64,000 nt of DNA, taken from the sequence record NZ_CP067021.1; one strand, given 5' to 3'. The first letter of the stretch is position 1. Every line of letters starts with the position of its first letter. A model generated the notes under the pieces. The model saw only the letters and a program-made list of their open reading frames with translations. It was not told the DNA's origin and made no database searches. The position numbers were made by a program, and so were the translations under genes. The stretch comes from a plasmid. Positions 29,752 to 51,203 of the stretch are shown here, piece after piece.

Positions 29752-31392
29752 ATGACTGAAGAAATAAATAGTAATGAAAAAAAAGATGGTCCTATTACGG
29801 ATGTAGGTAAAAAGTTTGCTGGTGCACGTAAAGACAACCCATCACCAGACTTCTCAGGCAACATGAATGGAATTAAGTCTGACAGCCTAGTGACTAAAAA
29901 GGAATATTGGCAAAAGCCTGATTTTAGAGCTGATGCCCAATCTGGCCATAAACCTGTAAAACATGCACTATTATTTTCTTTGGTCTATGCAAACTTAACC
30001 AACAAGCCTTTAGGGGGCGGTTGGTTTAGCATAGGTCAAAAGCAATGGGATGATGCCTACATTGCTACGCTACACTTCTTAAAAAACAAATATGAAAGCT
30101 CACACTACGAACGTTTAGAACAACTGACAGACGACTTTAATGCGTACATGACCGTTAAGTTTGGTGCTGGACGAAGTGAAAAAGATATTTTAGAACGCTA
30201 CTCAGCTGGACGACATACCAATCGCAGAGTTAAACACCCACTATCATTTAGTTCAGACACACGTTTACGCTTAAAAAACTTAATCCCTTTAGGATGGCCA
30301 GACGATCGTGTACTTGATACGGATAATTATGGTGCCAAAAAATTATTAAACACTGAGACTGGTCAACATAAGTGGTATGCCGTTAAATCCATTTCAGCAA
30401 AGCGGTTTCAAACACTAGATGATTGGACGGAATACGACACATTCAATGCAGCACTAGAAAAAGTAAAAACATTTTTTCAGCCAATTTTAGATGAACGAGT
30501 CATAGAACCCAAAAAAGGACGCGCAAAACCACCCAAAAGACCGCGCTACGACAGAGTTGAAGTGCGCGAGGGTAAGGACCATCGAAAGGGTGAAAACATC
30601 GATAGCCAGTTGCTTATGGACTATTTCAAATTTTCTGGAGTCGAGTTCGGCAATTGGGTAAATCAAAAGGAACGTGCATGGTTTCTGAATTGCACGTATG
30701 ACTCACTAATGGATCTTGTCGAACTTCTAGGTCTACCCGTTACGTTCGCATCTTTAGGCGGTAAGCTAGGAATAGCATTCGGTTCGCGTGGCACAGGCGT
30801 TGATAGCGCAGCAGCTCACTTTGAACCAGGTAATATGCTTATTCATTTGACCAAGACGCAAGGTGTTGGAGCACTAGCCCATGAGTTCGCGCACGGATTT
30901 GATTGTGTTTTGGCAAAACGAAACGGACTCAATAATAACTTTTTTAGCGAATACTTTCTTTACACCAGTAAAGGGCGTTACTCAGTACAGAATCATCAAG
31001 AGTCAGCATACAAACATCTTAAAGATGGCCAGACTGCAGATAAGTTTATCAAGCTGGTTAATTATCTTACTTTTAAGTCAACCAAATACCTTGATTACGA
31101 AGAAAGACAAGGCGGTACGGGCTTTATGAATAACGCCATGCACCTAGATCAATCACGGTCAATGTATTGGTCACAGCCAACAGAAATCTTTGCCAGACTG
31201 TTTGAATGTTGGGTGACGGATAAGCTGGCTGAAAATGATCAACAAAATGGGTTTTTGGTGCACGGCACAGAAGAGTCGGCAAATAGTTGGAATATGAAGT
31301 TAAGCGCATATCCAACAGGCAGAGAACGGGCAATTTTAGTTGATTTGATGGATGATTGGCTAAAAGCATTAGTGAGGTCGTGGACGAAATGA
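29752..31392 (+). CDS. Zincin-like HExxH metallopeptidase-domain protein (546 aa), resembling the zincin domains of conjugative-element 'polyvalent' proteins
   Basis: C-terminal motif GVGALAHEFAHGFD (HExxH) with a downstream acidic residue in ...NNAMHLD.... Basic KKGRAKPPKRPR linker. Confidence 0.7.
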   Translation: MTEEINSNEKKDGPITDVGKKFAGARKDNPSPDFSGNMNGIKSDSLVTKKEYWQKPDFRADAQSGHKPVKHALLFSLVYANLTNKPLGGGWFSIGQKQWDDAYIATLHFLKNKYESSHYERLEQLTDDFNAYMTVKFGAGRSEKDILERYSAGRHTNRRVKHPLSFSSDTRLRLKNLIPLGWPDDRVLDTDNYGAKKLLNTETGQHKWYAVKSISAKRFQTLDDWTEYDTFNAALEKVKTFFQPILDERVIEPKKGRAKPPKRPRYDRVEVREGKDHRKGENIDSQLLMDYFKFSGVEFGNWVNQKERAWFLNCTYDSLMDLVELLGLPVTFASLGGKLGIAFGSRGTGVDSAAAHFEPGNMLIHLTKTQGVGALAHEFAHGFDCVLAKRNGLNNNFFSEYFLYTSKGRYSVQNHQESAYKHLKDGQTADKFIKLVNYLTFKSTKYLDYEERQGGTGFMNNAMHLDQSRSMYWSQPTEIFARLFECWVTDKLAENDQQNGFLVHGTEESANSWNMKLSAYPTGRERAILVDLMDDWLKALVRSWTK

Positions 31393-32427: not shown

Positions 32428-33312
32428 ACGCACGAACGCAACCAGTGACATTACATGTGTCGTCAATGACAGCTTATGTGTCTCGAACGTGCACGTAATT
32501 TTGGATTGATTGGTTTGAATGCAGAAAATGTAAATTATGCAAAGTAACACCATGAATATAGCTGATGATTGTACGGTAGTACGTAGACCGTATCAAAGAA
32601 TGACGACAGCTAACATGCTTAAGATTTGTTATAATAAACAAATTGTTAGTATCTAAACGACACATGAGCTGTCATTTTTTGGAAATTGCGACTACCCTAT
32701 TCATTTTAATTCGAACTTTAACTTATGTTCACCTGAAGTCTAGTTAATAAAACTTTTAATAATTTTATTTATTATTTTCAATAACTTATATAAATAAAAA
32801 AATAATTATAAATTTTTGGTTCATGAACCTAATGAATTTATTGATACTTTTATAAAATAGAGTTAATTTGTCCGAGAGATATGGGTAGATATCTATTTTT
32901 GGTCTTTTTAGTGATTAGAGATATGACCATTGTCATCAAATTTTAAGGAATTCCTTAAGTTTTTTTCTTATAATTCAATAAAATAATTTTGAATACTCAA
33001 AAATTAAATGTAATATAAGTCACATTATGAACCGTTAAGTGAAATACGTTTTGCTTAAACGAATGATTGAGTTAGATCATCTAAATGATGATCGTGCTAG
33101 AAGACTCAGGTTTTACACCAAAATATTTGGCAGACTTTATTTTAAATACAATCCTAAACTGAATATAAAAAACCTTCGGAGGGCTTATTTGGCCAAACTA
33201 ACCATCAACCTGAAAAAACTAAATTCTTACGCTAAGTATTTTTTCTAAAAGACACCGTACATATAGCATTACTTTATGTTAATAAAAATTTAGCATCATT
33301 TTTGACGCTTAT

Positions 33313-36300
33313 TTGTTGTATGTGCAAAAGCAAGACATTTTAAATAAAGAATCTTTTAATATGAAAGTTACATATCCAGAGACAGGTATATACGAGCACG
33401 AACTCAAAGCAATTGATAAGATTAAAAAGGTCTTTGATCGTGGCGAAAAAACTAAAAACTGGCGAGCATATGCTGGTTTTGAATTTATGCATAAAAATGG
33501 AAAAAAAGCAGTAGCGAAAGGTAGTTCTGAGAAATTTGAATATGATCTCCTAATTATTACTCATGCAAACATTTTGGTCATTGAATTCAAGGACTGGAAC
33601 GGTAAGGAAATTACAAAAGTTGCAGGAAAATGGTACGTAGGTAATAAAGAGCAAGATTCATGCCCTGTAGCTAAAAATGTAAAAAAAATGCAAATTATAG
33701 TTAATAAACTAAAGGATAAAGTTTCAGAAAAGAAAGCTAAGGGCATTACATTTCATTACCAAAGTGTTTCTCACTTTGTTGTCATGTGTGGTAAAGCAGA
33801 TTATTCGCGCCTGCCTCCAGAAGATTTAGAGCACATTCTTTCGATAGATGAGTTTATACAATTAGCTCAACAGAAGAATTTTAATAATATGTTCCGCAAG
33901 CATCTGGAACGTGATGGTCGCATATATGATATTAAAAAAGAATATCACGCCATTATTGATGAAATTTTTGCGCCTGACCAAATTCAACCACGCTCTTTGA
34001 TTATTAATAATCATGAACGAGGTGACTTGATCTTACCGCATCCTAAAAAGATTTATAGCGAGTATAAAGCGCATTCATTGACCATCGTTGGTGAAAAATC
34101 TTTAATGCGTTGTTGGGATTTTAATGAATTCAAGTTGAGTAACTCAAGAATGAGTCAGCCTCAACATCGATTCAACTTGATCTGCAATGAGCGCCGGGTT
34201 TTCCAAAAAATTAAAACAGAAAAGCCTGATCTTTATCAAAGTTGTTTGCACCCGATTACAAACCCAAGTCTTGATGACATGACATCAAAATATAATGAGT
34301 TGTATGAGTTGCCTGAGAACAGCTATCGAGTCAACGAATTCATCGGCGCTTATGCTGAGAAAATGTCTGAATCTGAGAAATTGGATTTATTCCAGATTTT
34401 GCTTGGTAAATTTAATCACCTACATCAAATGGGAATTACTCATGGTGATGTGGGTGATCATAGTGTGTGGATCTCTTATAAAAAGGAGATATTGCTATCC
34501 AATTTTTCGGCAGCAAATGATCAAACACAGCCCTCGAAAATTGACCCTGAACTGGCTAACGAACTCCCATTTTTGAATACAACAGCTCATCTTCCGAATC
34601 TTGCGCTGACAGCTGCACAAAAGGATGTGTATTGGTTAGGGCAGTTAATCCTTCATATTTGGAAGAATGCTCGACTGAGCCCACGTTCATTGAAAAAATT
34701 TAGTCTTGAGGAGCGAGATCAGAACCACTGGTTAGAGCGTATTTTAACACGAGCTTTGACAGGGAAATATGATAATGCATGTGCAGTATTCCAAGATTTC
34801 TTAGCTCAAAAACCTGCTGAACAAGTTAGTTATGAACTTGATGCAGATGTACTGAATCCATATTTAAATCAGACAAATACCTATATCAGTTACCCGATAT
34901 TTGGCGCGCCTATTGATGCTAACCAAAATTTTACACTCTATGCATCAGGCAACATGTTAGTCAAAACATGGATGGGTAAAGTTGCATCTGCAATGACAAC
35001 TTATCAAAAGAGTTGTTTTAAGCGATTCTTTGAAGAACTTAAAATGACGCAGGCTCTCAATTTGCCATACCTTCCTAAGATTATTGATTTTGGTTTATCA
35101 ACTAGCACAGCATGTGTGTATCTAGTAACTGAAATGGTAAAGGGTGAAGCTTGGTCAACGGTTATTGAGGGCTTAACTGAGGATGAAAAAAATGAACTTT
35201 CACTTCAGTTATTGCATTCTCTGAAAAAATTTCATGAGCATGGCTTTCAACATGGAAACTTGGATGATGAAAAGATTCTAGTAGATAAAACAAACTTGAA
35301 AGTTAGTTTTAATGATTGCTTCCATCCTGAAGTACCACAACCTGATTCTTCTAATGCTTATTTCCCATCTGATATTGAAGATCCAACAGTCATTCAGTGT
35401 GACAACTTTACTGCATTGAAATTAATCGCAGATCTATACGATATAGACTTGGCTGTGGATGATGTGGCTTCAATGGATCCTACTTTATCCTGGCTAAATA
35501 CAGCCTTGAGCATAGAAGGAATGGAAGATCCAAGTGTACGCTATATTGATAATTCTCGCTTTATAGAGGCATTTGAATGTAAGGGTGCTATTGTAAAAGA
35601 AGCTCCTCAGATTAGTATTTATACAAGTAAGGTTGAGACGCCCTTTACGATTTATCCCGAAAACGGCAAAGTTTATATCCAACTTGAGGCAGCAAGTGAG
35701 GGGGATTTTCGATTTACACTTAGCGGAATCAATGGCATGTTAAAAGGGTTTTATAAGCCCCATGAAAATCAATTAAGTTTCCTTGATTTTGTCAAAAAAC
35801 AAGACCTGTGGTGGAAGGCTAGTAGGGATGCAGATCTGACTATTGATGTTAGCATTGAAGTCCACCCGATATCTGGGATGAGTAAGCGTGACAACATTGT
35901 AGAGTTAAATGACTTCTTAGCAAAAGATCAAAACTTTAAGGATGCTATTGAACAGTTTAAGCAAGCACAGCTCAAAAGGACTCAAGAGAAAGAGGAAACA
36001 TTACGGGCTCTGCGTGAACAAAAAGCATTACAAGAAGAGATAGGCGATGTTATAGCTACTGATGAGCTTATGGCACAGCCAATGAGTCATCTGCCTACAC
36101 ATAGCCACTTAATTGATATTGAAACGAAAGAGTTGTGGAAAAAAGTCATGGCGACTGAGCGTCATGCACATCCTACAATCACTCTGTCTGAGCCGTTAAA
36201 GATAGTTTCGAGCAAACATTTTAAAGATTCAAAGAGTGCTATTGCATACTATGACTCTGCAGAAGATGTTTCAGCTAAATTTTCAAAGACCGATAAAGTC

Positions 36301-38547
36301 GATGTAATGTGCACTAAAGAAACTGGGGCGGGAGGTGATTACACTTTCTGCATAGGTACGGTGAATATTGCGCAATCAAAAGTCGGAGAATTGTGGATCG
36401 ATTTTTGTAAAAAAACAAATGAAGTTCCTGAAGAAGCAACACTGTTTCTACAAAGCAAGGCAGATAAGTCATCTAATCGGAAACGTGCAGATGCTCTGAC
36501 AAATATTCTGAGTAATAAGGCTGTCATTGAAAATCTCGTAGATTACTTTGAACCATCATTAGTGATTGAAGCAAAAGATTATGAGATTGAAGTGCCTGAT
36601 GAAGATCTAGATCACTATAACAAATACAAAAATGGGGAATTGGTTAAAGCCCTCAATCCATTACAACGTAAAGCGTTCCGTAATGTGCTTAAGTATGGAC
36701 CTGTATCACTATTAAAGGGACCACCAGGAACCGGCAAAACTGAATTTATCTCTATACTGGCTCACTATCTCTATGATAAACAAAATGTATCTAACATCTT
36801 AATTGTTAGTCAGTCGCACGAAGCTGTAAATACAAGTGTTGAGCGTATACGTCAGCTATGCACAGAGTATGACACACCATTAAGTATTGCTCGAATAAGC
36901 AATAAAGAGAGTGCTGTGTCTCCTGAATTAAAAGATGTCTATACAGGCTCAATTATTACGAGCCAGATAGAGCTGTTTAAGTCTAATATTAAAGAAAGAG
37001 TGCTTGAGCTTGCAAAAGATTTATCACTTGAAGCTGAATACTTGAGCGATCTTTATGAAATCAGAGTCACTATTTTAAATAGTCTTAAATCTGCGTATCA
37101 GTCAATCGACCAAGATGATCTTGATCAAAAGTTTAGCTTCTCATTAGAAGAGTATACCCAGGCTTTCAAATCAGCAATGCATAAGCTGAAGAGCATGTTT
37201 GACGGAAATCAAGACTTTTGGGATCAACTGGAAGACTGTATCAATGATAAAGAGATAACAGTATTAAACCAGTTAAATAAGATCGACATGATTACGTTCG
37301 CAGCACTTAATCAATACTACGGGGTATCTAATGAGGAAGGACTTAAAGCGAAAGCCTTGATCAATATTGCCCTAGATTATGAACCATTAATTGAAAGCCA
37401 AAATGCTAATTATGAAAGTTTCCTGGTCAAAACAAGGCAATTAGTCTGTGGCACATGCGTTGGTGTTGGCCAACAAAGTATTGGAATCGCCAATCACGTA
37501 TTTGATTGGGTGATTATTGATGAAGCAGCACGTTCAATCGCTTCAGAATTGGCAATTGCAATGCAGTCAGGTGCACGTATTTTATTAGTTGGGGATCAAG
37601 ACCAACTTCCTCCACTATATTCGAGCGATCATAAAAAGGCTTTAGCTAAGCAACTTAAGATATCAGATGATGATTTGGAAGATAAATTACAAAGCGACTT
37701 TGGCCGTATCTTTAATTCACATTATGGACTAAAGGCTAGTTCAGAACTCTTGTCACAGTACCGAATGAGTCCGAGCATCGGCGAATTAGTTTCAGACTGT
37801 TTTTATGAAGGAAAACTTGAAACTGAAGTTGTCGATTCTCGTGGTTTAAGTGATGAAGAGCTGAAAGAAATTAAGTTAAAGCGGATTGTGCCTGATAACT
37901 ATGCATCCGACATCGCAATAGAATTGAATTCAACAGTTACTTGGGTGGATACTGGGAATGCTGAGCATTTCAAAATGGAGAAAGGTAGTAGTATTTATAA
38001 CCCACATGAAATTAATGAAATTATCGATTTTCTTCAGCGGATTGACCAAGACAAACTCTTGTTAAATAAATTAGTGCCAGAGCCTGATTCCCTTAAAGAG
38101 CCTGCTATTGGTGTAATTTGTACCTATGCTGAGCAAAAAAACCGGTTAAGAAAAGCCTTCTCTTTGTGTGAAGTGTCAGATGCATTGAGATCAATTGTGC
38201 GTATTGATACGGTGGATAGTTATCAAGGTAAACAGAATAAGATCATCATTCTCTCAGTTACGCGAAATGATCCAACTAAGTTTCCTGCATTTTTGAAGTC
38301 ACCAAATCGTGTGAACGTGGCTTTATCTCGCGCAATGGATCGTCTTGTAATCTTTGGTGCGTCAGAAATGTGGCAAGGAGTCAACAGTAACTTACCTTTA
38401 GGACGCGTATTAAATTACATCAAGTGCCGTGAGAATCAGACTTTAGAATATCGATATATTTCAAAACGCGCCATTGTCAAAATAGTACAAAACAATCCGC
38501 ACATTAATAAAAATAGATCAAAAAAATATAGAAAGGCAGGGGTATAA
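33313..38547 (+). CDS. Giant multidomain protein (1744 aa): N-terminal NERD (PD-(D/E)xK-like) domain, two tandem protein-kinase-like domains, C-terminal Upf1-like SF1 helicase
   Basis: NERD-like N-terminus (YDLLIIT...VIEFKDW, giving the D...ExK pattern). Kinase subdomain VIb-like loops LHQMGITHGDVGDHSVWI (~aa 380) and FHEHGFQHGNLDDEKILVD (~aa 645), each preceded by hinge-like segments. Helicase Walker A LLKGPPGTGKTEF (~aa 1136), motif II VIIDEAARS, VGDQDQLPP, VDSYQGKQNKIIILSV, motif VI NRVNVALSRAMDRLVIFG. Confidence 0.9.
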   Translation: MLYVQKQDILNKESFNMKVTYPETGIYEHELKAIDKIKKVFDRGEKTKNWRAYAGFEFMHKNGKKAVAKGSSEKFEYDLLIITHANILVIEFKDWNGKEITKVAGKWYVGNKEQDSCPVAKNVKKMQIIVNKLKDKVSEKKAKGITFHYQSVSHFVVMCGKADYSRLPPEDLEHILSIDEFIQLAQQKNFNNMFRKHLERDGRIYDIKKEYHAIIDEIFAPDQIQPRSLIINNHERGDLILPHPKKIYSEYKAHSLTIVGEKSLMRCWDFNEFKLSNSRMSQPQHRFNLICNERRVFQKIKTEKPDLYQSCLHPITNPSLDDMTSKYNELYELPENSYRVNEFIGAYAEKMSESEKLDLFQILLGKFNHLHQMGITHGDVGDHSVWISYKKEILLSNFSAANDQTQPSKIDPELANELPFLNTTAHLPNLALTAAQKDVYWLGQLILHIWKNARLSPRSLKKFSLEERDQNHWLERILTRALTGKYDNACAVFQDFLAQKPAEQVSYELDADVLNPYLNQTNTYISYPIFGAPIDANQNFTLYASGNMLVKTWMGKVASAMTTYQKSCFKRFFEELKMTQALNLPYLPKIIDFGLSTSTACVYLVTEMVKGEAWSTVIEGLTEDEKNELSLQLLHSLKKFHEHGFQHGNLDDEKILVDKTNLKVSFNDCFHPEVPQPDSSNAYFPSDIEDPTVIQCDNFTALKLIADLYDIDLAVDDVASMDPTLSWLNTALSIEGMEDPSVRYIDNSRFIEAFECKGAIVKEAPQISIYTSKVETPFTIYPENGKVYIQLEAASEGDFRFTLSGINGMLKGFYKPHENQLSFLDFVKKQDLWWKASRDADLTIDVSIEVHPISGMSKRDNIVELNDFLAKDQNFKDAIEQFKQAQLKRTQEKEETLRALREQKALQEEIGDVIATDELMAQPMSHLPTHSHLIDIETKELWKKVMATERHAHPTITLSEPLKIVSSKHFKDSKSAIAYYDSAEDVSAKFSKTDKVDVMCTKETGAGGDYTFCIGTVNIAQSKVGELWIDFCKKTNEVPEEATLFLQSKADKSSNRKRADALTNILSNKAVIENLVDYFEPSLVIEAKDYEIEVPDEDLDHYNKYKNGELVKALNPLQRKAFRNVLKYGPVSLLKGPPGTGKTEFISILAHYLYDKQNVSNILIVSQSHEAVNTSVERIRQLCTEYDTPLSIARISNKESAVSPELKDVYTGSIITSQIELFKSNIKERVLELAKDLSLEAEYLSDLYEIRVTILNSLKSAYQSIDQDDLDQKFSFSLEEYTQAFKSAMHKLKSMFDGNQDFWDQLEDCINDKEITVLNQLNKIDMITFAALNQYYGVSNEEGLKAKALINIALDYEPLIESQNANYESFLVKTRQLVCGTCVGVGQQSIGIANHVFDWVIIDEAARSIASELAIAMQSGARILLVGDQDQLPPLYSSDHKKALAKQLKISDDDLEDKLQSDFGRIFNSHYGLKASSELLSQYRMSPSIGELVSDCFYEGKLETEVVDSRGLSDEELKEIKLKRIVPDNYASDIAIELNSTVTWVDTGNAEHFKMEKGSSIYNPHEINEIIDFLQRIDQDKLLLNKLVPEPDSLKEPAIGVICTYAEQKNRLRKAFSLCEVSDALRSIVRIDTVDSYQGKQNKIIILSVTRNDPTKFPAFLKSPNRVNVALSRAMDRLVIFGASEMWQGVNSNLPLGRVLNYIKCRENQTLEYRYISKRAIVKIVQNNPHINKNRSKKYRKAGV

Positions 38548-38550
38548 CTC

Positions 38551-39927
38551 ATGGAAAATTCACTAAGAAGCTATCATGACGTAGATGTTACATTGCCATC
38601 ACAACTATTCAATGTGGCATTTAGCTATACCACAACAGATACCTTAGATTTTATTGATTCTATGGTATTGCGCCTATTGGTAATTGCACCACTTTCTGCT
38701 GAAAAAATAGCGCGGTTCTTAGGGTTATCTAATCATGAAACAGATGTGCTATTAACTAAATTATTAAAACAAATGCAGATAAAACATCTTGAAGATGATC
38801 GATTTGCTCTGACTCAGCGACTTGAGAAAGCATTCTCGGATGTTTGTGCAATTCCTTATGTAAATAAGATTGAGGACAATATTCAAAAGATGAGTTTTGA
38901 GATGATTGGCTTGAATCCTGAGCCAGTTAATCCCAACGCATCTGACAATGGGGCAAATTCAATTAAATTAGATGCTTCTAACCAATACCTTTCAAATGGT
39001 GAGTCTTTGGTTAGTAAGGAGTTTCAGAAAAATTTTCGATTTTATTTCAGCCAAGGATTAGTTAAGTTGAATCCATCAGTGGATGAAAAGAAGCTGCAAC
39101 TGTATAAAATGAGCCAAGTGGAAAAATTGCGAGACCATTCTCGTCGTTTTACATTACCATTGACGCTTGATGAGAATTATACACCTACAGAGATTAGTGA
39201 TTTTAATCACATGGAAAATCTTAACAAAATCGAAGATTCTCTTTACGCTGCTCTTAGATCAGCTAAGAAGCCACAAAATATTGAGGATATTCTAAAGGTA
39301 CTCCATGAATTAGATATGGAGGATACTTTTTCAGTTGAATCTATTTTTAGCGAGAATAAGCTTAATTTAGATCGCTTATTTAAGCTAGAACACAAATCCA
39401 ATGAATACTTTATCGGGCCAATATATTCTAAGGAAAATTCAGACCTGTTTTTCAAAACAATCAAACAATATCAAGACCAGAATAATGATGATAAACAGCT
39501 GTATTGGTTAGCTCCATCAGATGAATTTTGGGGTAAGTCAGATAGATTTAGTGATTTTATTGATCGTTTATCGACAACCACAATTACCAAAAACTTTAAA
39601 TGCTTCTTACCAGTGGCATACAGAAATGATAAACAATCAATCGCAAGTTATAAAAAACTAATCACAGCTGAGGCAGGAGCCAAGCACTTTCTAACGTTTA
39701 AGGAAAGTAGTGTAGTTTTTGACGGTAATTTTGAGCTTTTGGTTATGAAAGACTCTTTTTGTGTTTTGATTATTCACGTTAGTGATTCATCCACAAATAT
39801 TTTAACAACAGTGCCTGTGGGTATTATTGTCAAAAATAAGGCTATTGCCCAATCGTTTTATAAGTTTTTTGAAGACTTAGAGAACGATGGAGAGAACTTC
39901 TTTGGTTTATTAAATTCTAAAAAATAG
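38551..39927 (+). CDS. Hypothetical partner protein (458 aa) with a possible N-terminal winged-helix motif; translationally coupled (4-nt gap) to the NERD-kinase-helicase gene
   Basis: Starts 4 nt after the upstream stop. Followed by a strong terminator. No catalytic motif recognised. Confidence 0.8.
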   Translation: MENSLRSYHDVDVTLPSQLFNVAFSYTTTDTLDFIDSMVLRLLVIAPLSAEKIARFLGLSNHETDVLLTKLLKQMQIKHLEDDRFALTQRLEKAFSDVCAIPYVNKIEDNIQKMSFEMIGLNPEPVNPNASDNGANSIKLDASNQYLSNGESLVSKEFQKNFRFYFSQGLVKLNPSVDEKKLQLYKMSQVEKLRDHSRRFTLPLTLDENYTPTEISDFNHMENLNKIEDSLYAALRSAKKPQNIEDILKVLHELDMEDTFSVESIFSENKLNLDRLFKLEHKSNEYFIGPIYSKENSDLFFKTIKQYQDQNNDDKQLYWLAPSDEFWGKSDRFSDFIDRLSTTTITKNFKCFLPVAYRNDKQSIASYKKLITAEAGAKHFLTFKESSVVFDGNFELLVMKDSFCVLIIHVSDSSTNILTTVPVGIIVKNKAIAQSFYKFFEDLENDGENFFGLLNSKK

Positions 39928-39940
39928 AATAATCATCTTA

Positions 39941-39970
39941 AAAAGCTAGCAGATTTGCTAGCTTTTTTAA
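39941..39970 (+). terminator. Rho-independent terminator (AGCTAGCA-GATT-TGCTAGCT + T-run)
   Basis: 8-bp perfect stem, 4-nt loop, T5 tail. Confidence 0.8.
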
Positions 39971-40305
39971 ACTCAAATTAGAGTGGCAACAATCCAGACC
40001 AGACATTTCTACTTTGAAGTGGCTTTGTTGCACAAAGATTTGAAATGCAAAGCGCCCCTAATTGAGCCAAATTTAAGGCGTAACTTGGGTAAGTGGTCGA
40101 CCTAATTCCGTAAATCTGTTAAGGACTGCTACACGTGCATGGATCTCATTCACTTGGCTATCAAAACTCCTTGCACTGAGTTTATCTCCTAATAATTTGA
40201 TGCAATGCATCTTAGTTTCAACCAAACTTCGCCGATGATAGCCTGACCATTTTTTCCATAGTGTCCTGCCTAAACGTTTAATTGTTCGAAGTAATTCATT
40301 TCGCT

Positions 40306-40815
40306 CTAGCGAGCTACTCTTTGTATCTTTCCATTTTTTCTAGGTGGAATCACCGCATGCGCTTGCCGATCTGCAATGACCTGACGGCATTGCTTGGTGT
40401 CATAAGCCCCATCGGTATAAACAGAGTCAATCCGCTCATCTTGTGGAATCTGATTAAGTAAATCACCAAGCACCTGTGAATCACTGACATTATTGGTTGT
40501 AAGCTGAACTGCTCGTATTTGTAGGGTTTTAGCATCTATACCAATATGAAGTTTACGCCATTGGCGACGATATTCAGGTCCATGTTTCTTGCGTTTCCAT
40601 TCGCCCTCACCTAGAAACTTCATGCCTGTAGAGTCCATGAGTAGATGCAGCCCATCGCTACTTTTTTGGTAGCTGATTACAATATCAATATGCTTTTGTC
40701 TTCTACAAAGCGTGGTGTAATCTGGAGCTATCCAATTTAATCCGCAAAGTTTAATCAGACTTTGCACAAAGCCAGTGACCATACGTAAAGACAGACGGAA
40801 TAAGGATTTAATCAT
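40306..40815 (-). CDS. IS5-family transposase OrfB (DDE domain portion)
   Basis: 169-aa ORF with a DDE_Tnp_1-like sequence (...VYTDGAYD...). Confidence 0.7.
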   Translation of the reverse strand: MIKSLFRLSLRMVTGFVQSLIKLCGLNWIAPDYTTLCRRQKHIDIVISYQKSSDGLHLLMDSTGMKFLGEGEWKRKKHGPEYRRQWRKLHIGIDAKTLQIRAVQLTTNNVSDSQVLGDLLNQIPQDERIDSVYTDGAYDTKQCRQVIADRQAHAVIPPRKNGKIQRVAR

Positions 40816-40994
40816 TAAGCAGCATTGGATGGCTGCGTCGGAGTAGATTTGATTTCGCCCTTGTTTGCCTTTTGATGGAGCATATCATTGCGTAGCAGGA
40901 TCAAACCAAATGGCAATATTTCCTCGACTCATGAGTGCTCGGTTATATGCGGGCCAATTGGTTGTGCGGTAGATTTTGTGTGTAGGCTTCTTCA
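40815..40994 (-). CDS. IS5-family transposase OrfA (59 aa)
   Basis: Hand translation: MKKPTHKIYRTTNWPAYNRALMSRG..., a typical IS427-group N-terminus. Not in the ORF track (<60 aa). Confidence 0.55.
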
Positions 40995-41140
40995 TTTGAA
41001 AATTATATCGCTGAAAAACCCTTTACAGATAGGTTTGTGCAACAAAGCCATTCAGAATTGAAATAGAAAAATTTAAAAATAAATAACTTGGAAATAGATT
41101 TTATGATAAAATTCAATCAGCTATATTAATTTCTACACTT

Positions 41141-41467
41141 ATGTCTGCACTACAAAAAATTAATGAAGATATGATAGTGAATCTTCCTAAGGGTGATTTA
41201 CACGTTCATTTAAATGGAGCTATTCCAACAAATTTAGTTAAGGAATTATTAGCAAAAAATACAAATGGAATTCCCTCAAATTTTGATATTAATAAAGATT
41301 TAAATATTCTCGAACCACAAAAAAATCTGCAAGATTATTTAAAACCATGGAAAGTCTTAAATTTAATACCTAGATCGCAGAGTGATTTAAATAAAATAGT
41401 ATTACAAACATTTTTTAGTTTAAAACGGCTTTGTTGTATAAACATTCTTCAAGATACTGATTTTTAA
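41141..41467 (+). pseudogene. Adenosine-deaminase-family gene fragment (N-terminal 108 aa only)
   Basis: DLHVHLNGAIPTNLVKELL matches the adenosine/AMP deaminase N-terminal metal-binding signature (HxHLDG[AS]I). The ORF is far too short for an intact deaminase (~330+ aa). Confidence 0.4.
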
Positions 41468-41613: not shown

Positions 41614-43245
41614 TTAAATTACAGCGATTTCATTCTTGCTTCCATTATTTCGAATTTGAAGTCTTGGAACCATTGAATTATTTAAGTAATCATAAATAAC
41701 CATTTCAGGATGATGCAGATCAAATGCTTGTCCAAACCATATACAAGCAGCATTGGATGCACATGGTAAGACATGAATTTTGGTAATTCCTTTATCTGTT
41801 AGACTATGAAATAACGCATGAATATCTTGCATGAAACTTAGTCCTCGTTCAGGATTTCTTATTGCTCCATTCCCCATATATTCTGGTTTAGCAGTAATAT
41901 TAATTACCGGATGTCCTAATTCAACAGCCTTATTTTTAGAGGTTTCTGGATCAGCAGTGAGATTCAATCTAATAGTAATTTCAGTACAATCTTCTATTTC
42001 ACTGAAATTATTAATTTCATACGCTTTGGTTGTACATATAAGATCAGGCCACATCCAACAACTTCCATCCCTATACATAAGCATAGGTATAAATTTCCCT
42101 TTATTTCCTAATTTACTTCCTAATGCTATTAGGCATGGCATAGGGCCGAAGCCAAAAATAGCTACTCTCTTATCATCAAATTTAGTTTCCCTAAGTAATT
42201 GTTCTGTTTGAACTTCAAATTCTTCTAAAAAATACTTTTTATAGAACTCATCAGCTGAAGCTCTTAAATGAGCTGGTAATGGTTCATGAATTAGTGTCTT
42301 ATCTTTATGCAAAATAGATTTTAATGGGAGAAGGCAGCTTGCAATATCACGTCGTGAAGGAGACTGAGGAATATTGCGATTCACGGGCCAGAAAAATAAA
42401 TACACTGGCATAGGAGTAAAGCTTAAAGAATCTAATAAATCTTCGCATTGTGCTGTGAAATTACTTCTCATTTGCGAGAGTCTTGAAGCTGTATATTCTG
42501 CGCCAGCAACTTTATCAATTAACCTATGATGTTTTTCACATAATAATAAAATATTCGTTGGATCATCTGATAGTTGATATGAGAAGAAGGGGATACCGCG
42601 AGTAGAATTTTCTGATGCTGCAACATTATGAGCTAAAACGCCATATGTACCTTCAAATCCAGTTATTTCATCTATGTTTAATTTTGCACCACATCCTTTA
42701 AACATACATCGGCCATGACTTGAGAGATAAATCTGGTTTTTATCTTTTTCAGATAAATCGTTACCCCTACCTGTAAGATGCTCAAAATCAAAAATTCTTT
42801 TTATGAAATATTCTAATTGGTTTACAGGGTTTGGTTTTTGTTTAGGAATCTTTCTAGGAACAAAATCTACATCTTTAACTTCGCTCTCTTGAGAGGAGGT
42901 TAAATTCCATGTTTCTTTTAACTTTTCAAAATCATGTAGAGTGTGGGCATCAATTATGTGACCTTGAAGAAAGCGTGCATAAATGGAAATTTTTTTGGCA
43001 AGCAATCTTCGGACAAAAGTTAAAGTATCATCATAATTGAGAATTATACGGAAAAAACTTTCAGGGCTTTTATTTTTCAATAAGACAAAAATTATATTTT
43101 TACGTTCTTCATCAACTAATACACCTAATGAATCTATACAAATATGCTTTAAAATTTCTTCTATATATTTATTTGCATTTGATAAATCATCTATTGCTGA
43201 TAAAGAAGTCTGTAAACTTAGGGATGGGTCTAGTTGCATTTTCAA
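41614..43245 (-). CDS. cap5: CBASS effector Cap5 (N-terminal HNH endonuclease + C-terminal SAVED sensor domain)
   Basis: HNH-like motif (LAHNVAASENSTRG...CEKHHRLID). C-terminal ~250 aa has SAVED-like architecture. Last gene of a CD-NTase/Cap2/Cap3 operon. Confidence 0.75.
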   Translation of the reverse strand: MKMQLDPSLSLQTSLSAIDDLSNANKYIEEILKHICIDSLGVLVDEERKNIIFVLLKNKSPESFFRIILNYDDTLTFVRRLLAKKISIYARFLQGHIIDAHTLHDFEKLKETWNLTSSQESEVKDVDFVPRKIPKQKPNPVNQLEYFIKRIFDFEHLTGRGNDLSEKDKNQIYLSSHGRCMFKGCGAKLNIDEITGFEGTYGVLAHNVAASENSTRGIPFFSYQLSDDPTNILLLCEKHHRLIDKVAGAEYTASRLSQMRSNFTAQCEDLLDSLSFTPMPVYLFFWPVNRNIPQSPSRRDIASCLLPLKSILHKDKTLIHEPLPAHLRASADEFYKKYFLEEFEVQTEQLLRETKFDDKRVAIFGFGPMPCLIALGSKLGNKGKFIPMLMYRDGSCWMWPDLICTTKAYEINNFSEIEDCTEITIRLNLTADPETSKNKAVELGHPVINITAKPEYMGNGAIRNPERGLSFMQDIHALFHSLTDKGITKIHVLPCASNAACIWFGQAFDLHHPEMVIYDYLNNSMVPRLQIRNNGSKNEIAVI

Positions 43246-43748
43246 TTTAACTCAATATAACCTAACAGTTTGATTTTAAAATTTTTTCTACCAATCCAGA
43301 TTCCAGTTTTTACTCTTCCGATTATTAAATATAAAACTGGGTCATTAAGATTGGTAATGCCATTTAGAACAGTATCTATATCCCTTAAATCGGTTGGAGA
43401 GGGTGTTGGTACATCTTCAGGATGTGTATGCCATAGGCCTTGAAAATTATAGAATTTTTTAGATTCGTTCCAAGCTTGTATTAAAGCATATTGGTGGGAC
43501 TTTGACCTAAAGAAAGACATACGTGTTTGACAGTCTCCTTCCATAGGAGAGGTAAAGCTTTCAATGATTTTAGCTTTAGTTTCTATGTCTGTTCTTCCAA
43601 TTAGAATGCCACCCGATTCTGGAGAATCTGATTCTAATTGTATAAATTGCTTTAAACTCTTTAAAACATTTGCTTGAATAATAAAGACTTGGCCTGTAGG
43701 TGTGTCACATTTAATCCTCCCTTGAGTTATGTATTGCAACATGGGCAT
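43242..43748 (-). CDS. cap3: CBASS Cap3, JAB/JAMM isopeptidase
   Basis: Perfect JAMM motif WHTHPEDVPTPSPTD (HxHx7SxxD). 4-bp overlap with cap5. Confidence 0.8.
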   Translation of the reverse strand: MPMLQYITQGRIKCDTPTGQVFIIQANVLKSLKQFIQLESDSPESGGILIGRTDIETKAKIIESFTSPMEGDCQTRMSFFRSKSHQYALIQAWNESKKFYNFQGLWHTHPEDVPTPSPTDLRDIDTVLNGITNLNDPVLYLIIGRVKTGIWIGRKNFKIKLLGYIELN

Positions 43749-45385
43749 ACTTCTTTATAAATTTCTTTTAAATTCAATATATTAATTCCATTTGAATTAT
43801 TTACTGAATTATAAAAAGGGGTAGTAATTATTCCATTTTTATTTGCATTCTGATTGTCGCCAGAAATAGAAACAAATCCTAATTGTTGATTCAGGACATA
43901 TTCAGAAATATAGCTTGCTAGCTTCATGCAATTTAAAGAAGAGAAGGGGGTAAATGCACCAGCACACCCTGTAATATTTTTAGCAATTAGCTGTCCAGAT
44001 TGTACATATTTATACATAGGGGTAAGACTTTTATTTGATTTTTCATCAAAATATAAGCAGTTTAAACATCCTACATGTTTATTATTGAAAGAAATAAAAT
44101 GTCCACCTAAATCATAAGGTTCTAACCAGCCTATTATTACTTGAATGTTTGCACTTATTTCATAAATAGTTTTTACGAGAGAAATCTCAGTAGGAGTATG
44201 GCCAATTGCTATGATGATAGTATCAATATCTTCAGTAATTTTTGATTTTATCCAGCTTTCACCATGGCTTACGAATGGAAAAATAGTTAATCCGGGCCTT
44301 TCTATTAAAAACTTATTAGCTAAAGAAGTAGATTTATAGGTATTAACATACTGCAAACCTAAAGAATGACGATAAATATTATCTGTTTTTAAAAGCTCTG
44401 GATCTATGAAAGAAAATTTATTTACGCCTGTTTGAGCTAATATCTCTGCAATCTTTGAGCCTAAAGCCCCACATCCGATAATCGCTATATGTCTTGTTTT
44501 TTTCTCTTGCCCCGTTCTATTTAATAAATAATCTATCCACGCTCTTTGTGTTAAAGAGACTTTAAAGCCTTTGAAGGATACTTTTTCTTTGAAAGAATAC
44601 CAAATGGCATAATAAAAAATCACATAAGCAAATCCATGTTCATTTGGAATTCCCACTAGGGCATAATGATTGCCTTGTTTTAACAAAGATCGTTTGTTCT
44701 CATTAGAGAGGGTATTAACAATTTTTAGAAAATAGTCCTCATTAAAATAATCTCCTATATCTGGTATGGGGAAAACAGAAGCATCTTCTAATAATATCTT
44801 ATGAATTTTTACTTTTGTGAGCTGGTTGTGGTTTATGTAAGAACTATCGCCATCATCAATATGCTCTAATATTTGATGATTCCCTTTTGATGATTTTCTT
44901 AACCAACCATATAAATTAAATGTAGAAGTAGGGTCGCAATGTAATATTACATCCTCATTTATATTTTGAGTGCTGCCTAAATATCCTTCTAGTTCGTTAT
45001 ACAAGCTTACTCGGTTGTTTAATTGAAAATTAATAAAAGATTGCTTGAGTATATCTATAGCCCTTTCAAAGAATTCAGTAATAAGTTCTTTATGTCTATA
45101 GCCTTCAAAGTTTTCACCTTGATGATCCGTAGTACAAATTTCCCCACTTTGACTCACATGATCTAAGGCAGACATTGGTCGTGTCAATATTCTAAAAATG
45201 GGAGGTATCGTCCAATTAGCTCTATTTTGAAAAATTAGACCAAGGCAAACCTGTTGTGTATTAATGAGAAAATCAAATTTTAGATTAACCCAATCCTTAG
45301 TAATAGAAGTGACATGGATATTTTGAGCTCCATGTTCACTTAATAGCTTTTCAATATTGTCTAACTTTGGGTTATCAAAAAACAT
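43727..45385 (-). CDS. cap2: CBASS Cap2, E2/E1 (ThiF/MoeB-like) fusion protein
   Basis: E1 Rossmann IAIIGCGALGSKIAEILAQTGVNKFSFIDPE. C-terminal CxxC...CPCC zinc motifs. N-terminal E2-like region. 552 aa, typical Cap2 size. Confidence 0.8.
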   Translation of the reverse strand: MFFDNPKLDNIEKLLSEHGAQNIHVTSITKDWVNLKFDFLINTQQVCLGLIFQNRANWTIPPIFRILTRPMSALDHVSQSGEICTTDHQGENFEGYRHKELITEFFERAIDILKQSFINFQLNNRVSLYNELEGYLGSTQNINEDVILHCDPTSTFNLYGWLRKSSKGNHQILEHIDDGDSSYINHNQLTKVKIHKILLEDASVFPIPDIGDYFNEDYFLKIVNTLSNENKRSLLKQGNHYALVGIPNEHGFAYVIFYYAIWYSFKEKVSFKGFKVSLTQRAWIDYLLNRTGQEKKTRHIAIIGCGALGSKIAEILAQTGVNKFSFIDPELLKTDNIYRHSLGLQYVNTYKSTSLANKFLIERPGLTIFPFVSHGESWIKSKITEDIDTIIIAIGHTPTEISLVKTIYEISANIQVIIGWLEPYDLGGHFISFNNKHVGCLNCLYFDEKSNKSLTPMYKYVQSGQLIAKNITGCAGAFTPFSSLNCMKLASYISEYVLNQQLGFVSISGDNQNANKNGIITTPFYNSVNNSNGINILNLKEIYKEVCPCCNT

Positions 45386-45394
45386 TGAGTTTTC

Positions 45395-46408
45395 CTAAGC
45401 AGATTTTCCTTCTTGAGTGTAATAAGTTTGTACTACTGGTTCGGACACTTCTTGTATTTCAGGGATAGGGAATTGTCTTCCAAAAGTTTTATTTAAAATT
45501 TTGCAAGCTTCTACTGTATCAGTTTCCTCATTTACAGCTTCTAAAGATGATTTTAAATCTTCAAGTTTTGATTTTAAGTGCTCCATTTGTTTTCGGGTCA
45601 ATTTTTCGAGTAAGTCTACACCTTGATGTGCAGGTAAATTAATTACGAGTCTGAAGTAATACTCGTTATTTTCTGGATCAATGCTAAAGGTAGTGAATTG
45701 ATCTAATACATTATTTACTATAGAAAGTAATACCTTATTATCATTCTCATAATCTTCAGCTGTTATATGCTCATATACAGCTGTAGTGATAGCAATACTC
45801 TTAAAAAAATCTAGACCTTTCTCATTTCGCCATTGTTTCAAGTAGCGAGTACATCGTCTAAACTGATGACGTAAATCTGAATCATCTTCAAATTTTCCCA
45901 AAATTGTATCGGTAAGTTCAGTAGGATTTGAAATATCCCAAGTCTTAAGGTCTTCAGAGGAGAATTCCTTACCTCGAGCTAGATACATATTGCCTTTGTC
46001 GTCTTCAGCGTAGATGGGCAGATCTACATGATAATCGGGACTACCATTTTTGAGATAAGTGACAGTTACGCAAGGTCGTTTGATCGTTACAGTTCTATTT
46101 GAATGAGTTAAAGCATCTCTAACAATTTTTTTAATTTCTACTGAGCCATATTCCTCTTTGTCACAATCTAATAAAACTCCTACATCAATATCATAATCTC
46201 CATTCTTAGGCTTAATCCCTGTGCCCAAGGCATAACTACCTTGATTAAAGTATTCAACAAATTGAGGACCATTTGGATCCTTTTTGAGTTCATCTTTTAA
46301 GGTGCTAATCAAAAGGTCACGTTTTTCACGTAATGTACTTTCTTCGTCATAACGACCTAATCGAATATTTGTGTGGAACTTAGCATAGTGTTTTTGTGGA
46401 TTCGCCAT
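45395..46408 (-). CDS. cdn: CBASS cGAS/DncV-like nucleotidyltransferase (CD-NTase, SMODS)
   Basis: Pol-beta NTase signature QGSYALGTGIKPKNGDYDIDVGV (GS...[DE]hD). First gene of the four-gene minus-strand operon. Confidence 0.8.
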   Translation of the reverse strand: MANPQKHYAKFHTNIRLGRYDEESTLREKRDLLISTLKDELKKDPNGPQFVEYFNQGSYALGTGIKPKNGDYDIDVGVLLDCDKEEYGSVEIKKIVRDALTHSNRTVTIKRPCVTVTYLKNGSPDYHVDLPIYAEDDKGNMYLARGKEFSSEDLKTWDISNPTELTDTILGKFEDDSDLRHQFRRCTRYLKQWRNEKGLDFFKSIAITTAVYEHITAEDYENDNKVLLSIVNNVLDQFTTFSIDPENNEYYFRLVINLPAHQGVDLLEKLTRKQMEHLKSKLEDLKSSLEAVNEETDTVEACKILNKTFGRQFPIPEIQEVSEPVVQTYYTQEGKSA

Positions 46409-48030: not shown

Positions 48031-48407
48031 CCAAAAATCAATGGTATCGCCACGTTGATCGACTGCACGATACAGATAAGACCATCGTCCATTCACTTTT
48101 ACATAGGTTTCATCAATATGCCACGAGCTCAGATCTGTAGGATTACGCCAATACCAGCGTAAACGTTTTTCTATTTCAGGAGCATAACGTTGAACCCAAC
48201 GGTAAATAGTCGTGTGATCAACATTCACACCCCGTTCGGCCAGCATTTCCTGCAGTTCACGATAGCTAATGCCATATTTACAATACCAGCGCACAGCCCA
48301 AAGAATGATTTCGCCCTGAAAATGCCGACCATGGAAAGGATTCATATGCTGCACCTTTAGCTAAAACAGTCTTCAGCTTACCATTCGTGGTTATTTGCAA
48401 CAGTGCC

Positions 48408-49745: not shown

Positions 49746-49961
49746 GTGCGCCCATGCCGCATTGCGAAGCAAAAGATAATCGGATAAAATGTAGCAATTC
49801 ATATTCGTAAGCGTGGAGTAATCAGATGGGAAATTCCAAGTCAGCAGACAAGTAAGCCGCAACAACCAGTATTGTTGTTGCGGCGCTCTGTAAGGCTAGT
49901 CTCATCTGATTGCTGACGAGCAGACGTCGCCCGGTATTCCTTAATCGAGGGTTGATTCGTC

Positions 49962-51176: not shown

Positions 51177-51203
51177 CCGACGACTGGTAGCAGGCCCGCT
51201 CCG

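Follow-up and report, generated by a model that had tools for sequence, protein, structure and literature searches.

A plasmid-borne gene pair in Acinetobacter matches the long, NERD-containing subtype of the type I Mokosh anti-phage system

Type I Mokosh, an anti-phage system encoded by the gene pair mkoA and mkoB, occurs in a long and a short subtype. Among the systems of Millman et al. 2022 (10.1101/2022.05.11.491447, Tables S2 and S8) is SG199, listed as "Mokosh type I" from E. coli SEC470 and recorded as verified against phages in E. coli, which consists of a 1652-aa "Kinase-Helicase" MkoA and a 478-aa "HTH" MkoB; Acinetobacter entries for type I Mokosh are also present in Table S8. The short subtype, represented by E. 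coli ETEC H10407, has an MkoA of 1215 aa and an MkoB of 602 aa labeled "HTH-PLD" (PADLOC models PDLC03920 and PDLC03922). The text of Millman et al. presents type I MkoB as a nuclease of the PLD family whose active site is HxK(x)4D. It also states that Mokosh defense is lost when the ATP-binding site of the helicase is mutated, and it mentions PLD-site mutations in Mokosh, naming in neither case the Mokosh system that was mutated. NERD has already been counted among the domains of Mokosh type I (PMC10952713), and T-even phages rely on glucosylation of their DNA and on the Alt ADP-ribosyltransferase to evade a type I Mokosh (10.1101/2025.11.20.689424). A parallel between Mokosh and the piRNA pathway has been drawn by Cury et al. 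(10.1101/2022.12.12.520048). None of the literature searched describes how a type I Mokosh works biochemically or reports a phage test of the Acinetobacter operon, and one group reported unsuccessful purification of type I Mokosh (10.1101/2025.07.10.664194).

Here we analyze a 64,000-nucleotide stretch of plasmid DNA (sequence record NZ_CP067021.1; hereafter the window), in which an initial annotation made from the sequence alone had flagged a two-gene cassette as a candidate undescribed defense system. The cassette is real, yet it is already known, being a copy of a named and experimentally verified system. Judged from its sequence, the operon is almost certainly a type I Mokosh anti-phage system of the long, NERD-containing subtype, carried beside a type II CBASS by a large Acinetobacter plasmid that is widespread. 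The proposed defense role in a setting resembling a defense island thus appears sound, given Mokosh orthology and the CBASS neighbor, but the claim of novelty falls because the cassette matches a named and verified type I Mokosh. The comparison mainly serves to correct the record, since existing detection models recognize the supposedly undescribed cassette as an ordinary type I Mokosh.

The large gene, mkoA, occupies 33361..38547 (+) and encodes 1728 aa, translation probably beginning at the ATG at 33361. The mechanical open reading frame is longer, as first reported (33313..38547 (+), 1744 aa from a TTG start), and RefSeq places the start at GTG 33322. We prefer ATG 33361 because the database cluster that matches at 100% identity (P0138) has a length of 1728 aa and because the PADLOC MkoA model alignment begins at residue 1 of the 1728-aa form. 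The second gene, mkoB (38551..39927, +), is a separate gene on the same strand, has the extent originally given and encodes a 458-aa protein of the short HKD-less type. Its ATG follows the mkoA stop by 3 nt, in keeping with the tight coupling that had been proposed, and the purine-rich stretch AGGCAGGGG just before this ATG could be a ribosome-binding site. At the end of the operon lies an intrinsic-terminator-like hairpin (39940..39967, +) with a 12-bp stem and a flanking A-run and T-run, which agrees with the strong terminator predicted there: it folds at -18.4 kcal/mol (z = -4.1) and 0/200 shuffles fold equally well. RefSeq labels the two products only as "AAA domain-containing protein" (MkoA) and "hypothetical protein" (MkoB).

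The AT-rich intergenic leader 5′ of mkoA spans 933 bp (32428..33360, +). Between 32600 and 33100 its GC content drops to 19-25%, compared with about 37% for the genes, which bears out its description as extremely AT-rich. A search of the plus strand of the leader for a sigma70-like site found none, an Rfam scan of the leader gave no match, and its ORFs are all short and unannotated. The leader had been read as a possible sign of silencing or tight regulation; a long leader is not a trait of the family, and the corresponding gap measures about 185 bp in locus L006 of E. coli and about 450 bp in locus L003.

Assignment to Mokosh relies on full-length matches of both proteins. The top-scoring PADLOC match of MkoA is model PDLC03921 (E=0, 1675 bits), residues 1-1705 aligning to model positions 1-1603 of 1607, and that of MkoB is PDLC03923 (E=1e-94), residues 2-454 aligning to positions 4-451 of 454. 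For the verified SEC470-type operon, whose sequence was taken from E. coli TUM1886 (same operon), BLASTP aligns MkoA collinearly over its whole length at 33% identity (919 bits) and MkoB at 28% identity over 439 aa (E=6e-51). The type I features of a Upf1-like (COG1112-type) SF1 helicase, a kinase-like domain and an adjacent mkoB on the same strand are all found here; the HxK(x)4D active site of the PLD family is the one feature that MkoB does not show. The gene pair is also kept in metagenomic loci, where an MkoB of 22% identity directly follows a 1616-aa NERD-Pkinase-AAA_11/12 gene. In every case checked, MkoB homologues lie directly 3′ of a NERD-kinase-helicase gene. The word-indexed homologue search retrieves close relatives only, even with an alignment as query.

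The closest described system is the long subtype of E. coli SEC470, which shares with the present operon its gene order, tight coupling, full-length collinearity and the succession of NERD domain, kinase-like domain 1, kinase-like domain 2, middle region and Upf1-like helicase. Pfam detects NERD, Pkinase and AAA_11/12 in the SEC470-type MkoA and no domain in its MkoB, which is likewise short, carries a winged helix and lacks the HKD motif. The two differ in that identity is just 33% (MkoA) and 28% (MkoB), in that the Acinetobacter copy is plasmid-borne with its 933-bp AT-rich leader whereas the E. coli copy is chromosomal and sits in an integrase island, and in kinase-like domain 2, where the SEC470 type keeps HGDIHPGN ... 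IDIPDF and three residues, the catalytic Asp, the catalytic-loop Asn and the DFG Asp, have disappeared from the Acinetobacter clade. The short subtype is more remote. Its model PDLC03920 matches MkoA at 842-1696 with 393 bits, a kinase-like domain and the Upf1-like helicase being common to both, and PDLC03922 matches MkoB at 10-96 (about 4-243 in other family members), the N-terminal winged-helix regions of the H10407 MkoB and of this MkoB being homologous. The NERD domain and the PLD active site are distributed in a complementary manner: no NERD was seen in residues 1-399 of the H10407 MkoA, which has one kinase-like domain, and the H10407 MkoB has a canonical PLDc_2 domain (HAKIIVCD...GSCN) that is absent from MkoB here. 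Mokosh type II, in which the helicase is fused to a C-terminal PLD domain (MkoC), was rejected: there are two genes here, and the type II model matches MkoA at 1538-1705 only (88 bits).

Several other systems share single modules with this operon. PglW of BREX type 2/Pgl (PADLOC E=1.5e-11, NCBIfam E=6.6e-11) and MAD6 of MADS (NCBIfam E=2e-26) both match the N-terminal module of MkoA, NERD plus the first kinase-like region, at about 11-440, and matches of this type are stronger in relatives, up to E=1.8e-39. Membership in either family was rejected since only the N-terminal module matches and its NCBIfam scores, 40.7 bits for PglW (cut-off 990) and 92.7 for MAD6 (cut-off 460), fall far short. 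No BREX or MADS partner gene is annotated nearby, the scanned upstream ORFs gave no PADLOC match and the downstream genes belong to CBASS; PglW and MAD6 act in methylation-based systems with other partners and no Upf1-like helicase. Nhi and Nhi-like systems, Hachiman and Hna also combine a nuclease with a helicase, and Nhi-like systems also have a NERD domain (PMC10952713), but their helicases belong to different families (SF2 in Hachiman and Hna) and they have neither kinase-like domains nor an MkoB. None of their models is among the PADLOC matches at E<=1, and membership was rejected. The eukaryotic pairing of Upf1/MOV10L1 with Zucchini (PLD6) shares the helicase core and the Nuc/Zucchini fold with MkoA and MkoB. 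However, Zucchini uses an HKD active site that MkoB lacks here, and MkoA adds NERD and kinase-like domains that are absent from the eukaryotic helicases.

Pfam and PDB matches confirm that one protein combines a NERD domain, two kinase-like domains and a complete Upf1-like SF1 helicase, as had been read from the sequence. The NERD domain, of the PD-(D/E)xK nuclease-like type (Pfam PF08378), covers MkoA residues 29-124 (33445..33732, +) and scores 35.7 bits against a cut-off of 22.1 (E=1.3e-8). D62 and K77 do not vary among relatives as distant as 26% identity, and these have either E or D at position 75. Since these D...(E/D)xK residues are conserved, the domain is probably a nuclease, and by this reasoning probably the effector nuclease of the long Mokosh subtype. 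At the other end of the protein, the Upf1-like SF1B helicase core (36652..38364, +; residues 1098-1668) matches Pfam AAA_11 at 1098-1422 (E=5e-38) and AAA_12 at 1445-1668 (E=4e-36). It carries GPPGTGKT at 1120, DEAA at 1387 and GDQDQLPP at 1411, and throughout the family motifs I, II, III and VI do not vary. The closest solved relatives in the PDB are Upf1/Nam7 (E about 1e-22), Sen1, DNA2 and IGHMBP2. Between the kinase-like domains and the helicase lies a middle region (35461..36651, +; residues about 700-1097) that is conserved and collinear with the E. coli MkoA and gives no significant Pfam match.

Kinase-like domain 1 spans residues about 225-480 (34033..34800, +). Its profile finds 639 distinct PDB sequences at E<=10, and the 60 of these 639 matches that are listed are Ser/Thr kinases, among them PAK6 (E=9e-6), PLK4, B-Raf and PknB, which together with the Pfam Pkinase match of the second domain corroborates the kinase fold proposed for this part of the protein. 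HGD361-363 aligns to HRD and LSNF to LSDFG, so N381 occupies the position of the DFG Asp; H361 and D363 are invariant in the family. Kinase-like domain 2 (34918..35460, +; residues about 520-700) matches Pkinase at 549-648 with 43.5 bits against a cut-off of 31.7. It keeps K535 and E558, has HGN631-633 at the HRD position and K638 in place of the catalytic-loop Asn, and its DFG-Asp column holds S650 (VSF, against VDF in a distant relative). The HGD and HGN loops initially reported are thus both at the expected place; Asn at the DFG position, which had been assigned to both folds, is found in the first domain and not in the second. The same columns of domain 2 read HGDIHPGN in the SEC470-type protein and HGDLKPAN or HGDIKPDN in distant relatives, and the domain is a predicted pseudokinase in the Acinetobacter clade, its catalytic residues having been lost. 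Catalytic residues are degenerate in both kinase-like domains of MkoA and likewise in the verified H10407 MkoA, which has HRH and TGF at the catalytic-loop and DFG positions. Because both the catalytic Asp and the DFG Asp are absent from kinase-like domain 2 here and H10407 carries HRH and TGF, kinase catalysis is probably dispensable.

MkoB had been described as a partner with no catalytic motif and a possible winged-helix N-terminus, and both points stand: the HxK(x)4D motif is absent and a winged helix-turn-helix is predicted at residues about 30-95 (38638..38835, +). The AlphaFold model combines it with a PLD/Nuc-like fold at residues about 283-458 (39397..39924, +), which shares the fold of Nuc/Zucchini in this C-terminal domain. 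Model confidence reached pLDDT 89 with a 44-sequence alignment of distant representatives, compared with 34 using 9 close homologues. No significant family was found for MkoB in Pfam and none in NCBIfam, and profiles of the MkoB family searched against PDB sequences and Pfam gave weak winged-helix matches and no PLD; in this modeling, the relationship of MkoB to PLD is visible by fold only. The HxK(x)4D motif is missing at the aligned site in 97/97 family members, the verified E. coli type included, while W319 and E395 are kept in 97/97, G424 in 96/97 and H409 in 84/97. An hhalign comparison of the MkoB-family profile with a partial H10407 MkoB aligned the N-terminus only, at low probability, and for this reason the correspondence of GNFELLVMKD with GSHAKIIVCD was drawn by eye, with secondary structure, rather than computed. 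By this alignment the positions of the HKD His and Lys hold hydrophobic residues in MkoB.

FAM83 DUF1669, vaccinia F13 and TrmB-family regulators match the MkoB model structurally (Foldseek E about 1e-3), TrmBL2 over both the winged helix and the C-terminal domain; the TM-scores, at 0.2-0.5, are low, and no relationship can be detected at the sequence level. A functional analogy of MkoB with such HKD-less PLD folds, in ligand or protein binding, is a lead only. Two details were not found stated elsewhere: the winged helix plus HKD-less PLD fold of MkoB and, in MkoA, the conserved NERD motif alongside the loss of catalytic residues from kinase-like domain 2 in the Acinetobacter clade.

These features lead us to a tentative mechanism, offered in the expectation that it may well need revision. 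MkoA and MkoB would form a nuclease-helicase complex, in which the Upf1-like motor would load onto a nucleic acid of the phage, be it RNA, ssDNA or an intermediate of replication or transcription, and translocate along it at the expense of ATP. The N-terminal NERD PD-(D/E)xK site would cleave the loaded nucleic acid, so that NERD in the long subtype would take over the role of the HKD nuclease carried by MkoB in the short subtype. MkoB would have no catalytic function and would bind nucleic acid through its winged helix and HKD-less PLD-like fold as an adaptor or sensor. The kinase-fold domains would work as switches that bind nucleotides or provide a scaffold, and not as active kinases. In this scheme we infer three things: that NERD is active, that MkoA and MkoB associate, and what the substrate is. 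The intact helicase motifs, the published loss of defense after ATP-site mutation, the conserved NERD residues and the complementary distribution of NERD and the PLD site speak for it. The dependence of T-even evasion on glucosylation and Alt points to phage nucleic acid as the target that is sensed or attacked.

In nearly even measure, the data leave room for the broader proposal that type I Mokosh comprises two mechanistically different systems with swapped effectors, the long subtype relying on the NERD nuclease with MkoB as sensor or adaptor, or as the site of Glu/His chemistry (E395, H409). If true, the textbook view of "helicase plus PLD nuclease" and the analogy with Zucchini and the piRNA pathway would fail for the long subtype. 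For specialists, the complete NERD motif and the HKD-less MkoB offer clear mutants to test. As a whole, Mokosh identity taken together with the proposed mechanism is very probably the best explanation of the locus.

The division of labor could be the reverse, with MkoB as effector through a Glu/His site and NERD as a sensor or DNA-end-binding module. E395 and H409 could form an unconventional active site in the PLD-like domain, in which case MkoB would not be non-catalytic. Their conservation across the family speaks for this, as does their placement, by eye against H10407, on the strands that bear HKD and GSxN in canonical PLD nucleases; moreover, the NERD-kinase module is common to PglW and MAD6, where NERD may also be a sensor or bind DNA ends. 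Nevertheless, hydrophobic residues occupy the HKD His and Lys positions, the structural matches include HKD-less PLD folds (FAM83, for example), and the D...(E/D)xK motif of NERD is complete. Neither FAM83 nor TrmB-type domains are known to be catalytic. We consider MkoB as effector unlikely and retain NERD in that role.

Still less probable is that the operon is a decayed, inactive relic of Mokosh that confers no defense and is carried along by the plasmid. The missing HKD motif could suggest decay, as could HGN for HGD, K for the catalytic-loop Asn and S for the DFG Asp in a kinase domain 2 whose relatives retain canonical residues. Yet both ORFs (5.2 and 1.4 kb) and the helicase and NERD motifs are intact, MkoB is HKD-less throughout a family that includes the experimentally verified E. 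coli system, and the kinase loop is degenerate in the verified H10407 MkoA too. At >=80% coverage the cassette occurs in 54 large Acinetobacter plasmids, and in the best 15 of these 54, which come from nine named Acinetobacter species and one further isolate, identity is 99.9-100%, which again argues against decay.

A housekeeping role for the pair, as a plasmid helicase-nuclease in RNA decay, replication or conjugation, is very improbable. It could account for the position of the pair in a segment that is conserved within a large plasmid family, where conserved hypothetical genes and a gene with an LPD1 domain lie upstream of the pair, but the pair is an ortholog of a system with demonstrated protection against phage. 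It adjoins CBASS here, its counterpart in the E. coli integrase island adjoins a type I restriction system, and HipAB-like or RNase T and HsdR-like genes lie near the Mokosh pair in metagenomic loci. Least credible of all is a previously undescribed system that joins NERD, two kinase-like domains and a Upf1-like helicase to a novel partner: uninformative RefSeq names and the lack of a Pfam or NCBIfam family for the partner invite it, but the full-length PADLOC matches, collinear orthology with the SEC470 operon, the tabulated NERD domain and the Acinetobacter entries of Table S8 leave it next to no room.

The surroundings of the cassette agree with the IS-flanked region beside a type II CBASS that had been described. 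An IS5-family (ISAba12-like) element (40020..41050, -) lies between Mokosh and CBASS as context rather than as part of the system; it has perfect 17-nt terminal inverted repeats and a Pfam DDE_Tnp_1 match, and plasmid pH7-250 carries ISAba12 at the equivalent place. On the other side, collinearity with pH7-250 suggests an ISAba14 about 9 kb upstream of the cassette. The type II CBASS operon (41614..46408, -), also context, encodes a CD-NTase, E1/E2, JAB and a SAVED-nuclease effector and is supported by PADLOC matches (effector E=2e-221, JAB E=4e-75), by Pfam matches (DncV-like, SMODS) and by RefSeq annotation of an identical plasmid region. With near-identical copies across plasmids of varied isolates, the Mokosh-CBASS pair can be regarded as a mobile anti-phage module, with possible consequences for the use of therapeutic phages against Acinetobacter. 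The best-matching plasmids come from clinical, animal and sewage isolates, with blaOXA-58 on at least one of them and floR on one.

Mokosh was first described as a COG1112 Upf1-like helicase together with a PLD nuclease, and type I is defined by a kinase domain that is also carried on the helicase gene, with the PLD as a separate gene (Millman et al. 2022, preprint 10.1101/2022.05.11.491447). Both proteins of the cassette match PADLOC-DB models: MkoA, the product of the larger 5′ gene, aligns through residues 1-1705 with positions 1-1603 of the 1607 in PDLC03921 (E=0, 1675 bits), and MkoB, its 458-aa partner, matches PDLC03923 (E=1e-94) over practically its full length. The two verified type I systems differ in architecture (10.1101/2022.05.11.491447, Table S2). 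E. coli ETEC H10407, the short subtype, encodes a "Kinase-Helicase" MkoA of 1215 aa and an "HTH-PLD" MkoB of 602 aa, whereas E. coli SEC470 (SG199), the long subtype, encodes a "Kinase-Helicase" MkoA of 1652 aa and a 478-aa MkoB whose sole annotation is "HTH". The complete SEC470-type operon was retrieved from E. coli TUM1886 with the initial 399 nt of the cloned fragment as query. Its MkoA is 33% identical to that of the window (919 bits), collinear end to end, and carries the same Pfam set of NERD, Pkinase, AAA_11 and AAA_12; its MkoB, in which a Pfam scan found no domain, is 28% identical over 439 residues (E=6e-51). NERD (PF08378) is already tabulated among the Mokosh type I domains in a review (PMC10952713), and Acinetobacter type I entries are present in Table S8 of Millman et al. 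(10.1101/2022.05.11.491447). Together, these model matches, the collinear orthology to SEC470 and the two published listings identify the cassette, by sequence, as an orthologue of a system already named and verified by experiment. The initial annotation was right to read it as a defence system but had called it undescribed; the operon is already known, being recognised by existing models and verified in its E. coli orthologue, and a match to a named system is what that annotation had itself specified as refuting its proposal.

The two proposed ORFs are both real and lie on the plus strand: mkoA at 33313..38547, 1744 aa when called mechanically from a TTG, and mkoB at 38551..39927, with 3 nt between the mkoA stop and the mkoB ATG. 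RefSeq starts mkoA at GTG 33322. The likely start is ATG 33361, giving 1728 aa, because the 100%-identical database cluster has this length and the alignment to the PADLOC MkoA model begins at the first residue of this form. The expected terminator is borne out by a hairpin with a 12-bp stem that closes the pair at 39940-39967 (-18.4 kcal/mol, z = -4.1), as is the AT-rich leader, a 933-bp stretch (32428-33360) in which GC falls to 19-25% at 32600-33100. Within this leader an Rfam scan returned no matches and no plus-strand sigma70-like site was found. Two 18-nt arms of an inverted repeat, with 94% complementarity, lie in it at 32465-32482 and 32659-32676, as does a 69-aa basic ORF with a GTG start and without annotation (33039-33248).

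Pfam places a NERD domain at MkoA residues 29-124, a protein-kinase match (kinase-like domain 2) at 549-648 and the halves of a Upf1-type helicase at 1098-1422 (AAA_11) and 1445-1668 (AAA_12). The predicted helicase motifs are present, and among solved structures Nam7/Upf1, Sen1, DNA2 and IGHMBP2 are closest in sequence. A profile of residues ~205-500, built from seven homologues, matched numerous Ser/Thr kinase structures (PAK6 at E=9e-6); the kinase-fold domains therefore number two, as initially annotated. This profile sets HGD361-363 on HRD and LSNF on LSDFG, so the Asn claimed for the DFG position of both domains holds for domain 1, but domain 2 has S650. The N-termini of PglW (BREX type 2) and MAD6 resemble the NERD and kinase-1 module of MkoA.

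Residue conservation was assessed in a seven-sequence alignment with identity down to 26%. D62, K77 and E14 of the NERD domain are invariant and position 75 is E or D, which reads as a complete PD-(D/E)xK-type signature. Kinase-like domain 1 retains HxD, with H361 and D363 invariant, but across the family it lacks both the Lys of the catalytic loop and the DFG Asp. In kinase-like domain 2, K535 and E558 are retained in MkoA. Its loop reads HGDLKPAN or HGDIKPDN in the distant relatives and HGDIHPGN in the E. coli orthologue, all three having Asp at the DFG position, whereas the Acinetobacter clade has HGN or HGH in the loop and S, V or I at the DFG position. Since HGN633, K638 and S650 replace residues kept in relatives, domain 2 of the window's MkoA is predicted to be catalytically dead, and this clade-specific decay is modestly new. 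The verified H10407 MkoA likewise reads HRH for HRD and TGF for DFG (sequence in Millman 2022 Table S2); its "STK" domain thus looks, by sequence, like a pseudokinase, and an active kinase is probably dispensable for Mokosh defence.

An exhaustive HMMER search gathered 125 cluster representatives of the MkoB family, mostly of 450-520 aa. All those tested match PDLC03923, and wherever context is available the homologue follows a NERD-kinase-helicase gene, with stop and start overlapping or nearly so. The AlphaFold model of MkoB, from a 44-sequence alignment, is confident (mean pLDDT 89.4, pTM 0.80), and Foldseek matched it to Nuc (1BYR), NucT, Zucchini/PLD6 and PLD3, plus F13, FAM83 and TrmBL2. 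FAM83 is non-catalytic and the active-site HKD motif of F13 is degenerate. This motif, HxK(x)4D, occurs at the aligned site in 0 of 97 full-length MkoB-family members, the verified E. coli type included; a predicted PLD-like fold lacking it in short MkoB proteins is a second modestly new point. Aligned by eye, the MkoB strand GNFELLVMKD (392-401) would correspond to GSHAKIIVCD of H10407 MkoB, in which case the catalytic His and Lys would be replaced by hydrophobic residues; hhalign did not establish this correspondence. In H10407, by contrast, Pfam gives a clear PLDc_2 match in the partial MkoB sequence (E=3e-9) and no NERD match in MkoA residues 1-399. This apparent complementarity of NERD and HKD between the two subtypes of type I, based on no more than a handful of cases, is also modestly new.

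Phage protection by orthologous operons has been shown in E. coli, as has the loss of defence when the ATP site of the Mokosh helicase is mutated (10.1101/2022.05.11.491447). We infer that MkoA and MkoB work as a complex of nuclease and helicase. As a rule, systems of this class form complexes, although type I Mokosh resisted purification (10.1101/2025.07.10.664194). The Upf1-like motor would engage phage nucleic acid and, in the long subtype, the NERD site would cut in cis, while MkoB would have a nucleic-acid-binding and regulatory role, exerted by its winged helix and HKD-less PLD-like fold, and the kinase folds may act as switches or scaffolds. The main rival places a new active site in MkoB itself, at E395 (97/97) and H409 (84/97); the other conserved positions are W319 (97/97), G424 (96/97), P422 (95/97), G289 (94/97) and W327 (93/97). 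In a HIDEN-SEQ study, evasion of one type I Mokosh, long or short, by T-even phages required both DNA glucosylation and the Alt ADP-ribosyltransferase (10.1101/2025.11.20.689424), which by analogy fits phage nucleic acid as the thing sensed or attacked.

In PLSDB the 7.2-kb region occurs in 442 plasmids, of which 441 belong to Acinetobacter, and is covered to at least 80% in 54. The 15 best of these 54 (99.9-100% identity) are large plasmids of 207-378 kb from sewage, animals and patients, in A. johnsonii, lwoffii, pittii, baumannii, junii, seifertii, defluvii and others. Window positions 23061-46792 are collinear with pH7-250 of A. lwoffii (99.94%).

The cassette does sit in a defence island beside a complete type II CBASS operon on the opposite, minus strand (41614-46408), comprising a SAVED-nuclease effector (41614-43245), JAB (43242-43748), E1/E2 (43727-45385) and CD-NTase (45395-46408). 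To call it IS-flanked is accurate only in a loose sense: between mkoB and CBASS (40020-41050) lies an IS5-family (ISAba12-like) element whose 17-nt terminal inverted repeats are perfect, and ISAba14 lies ~9 kb upstream, beyond conserved hypothetical plasmid genes and an LPD1-domain gene. The latter (29752-31392, plus strand, 546 aa) has a C-terminal large polyvalent protein-associated domain 1 (E=6e-19). The transposase frame of the IS5-family element is split into short ORFs in the window, and the same gap in pH7-250 holds an intact 310-aa transposase gene. Because a different element, ISAba17, occupies it in pAcsw19-2, the gap reads as a recurrent IS landing site. Between IS and CBASS, a 108-aa ORF (41141-41467, plus strand) matches only positions 1-77 of the Pfam adenosine-deaminase model, below cut-off (E=8e-6), and may be a truncated deaminase remnant. 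Further along, GC rises to 57-63% at 48000-52000 against 30-40% elsewhere; 49712-51453 aligns to the part of pH7-250 that carries floR (florfenicol resistance), and copies of IS6-family elements surround it.

Related loci show a similar setting: one metagenomic relative has RNase T-like and HsdR-like genes nearby, and another adjoins a HipA-type toxin module. The TUM1886 operon lies in an integrase-bounded island beside clpA, with a type I restriction system adjoining downstream. At 8753-9101 of this locus (L006), directly upstream of Mokosh, lies a fragment with a frameshift, its annotation being a "TOTE conflict system archaeo-eukaryotic primase domain" protein.
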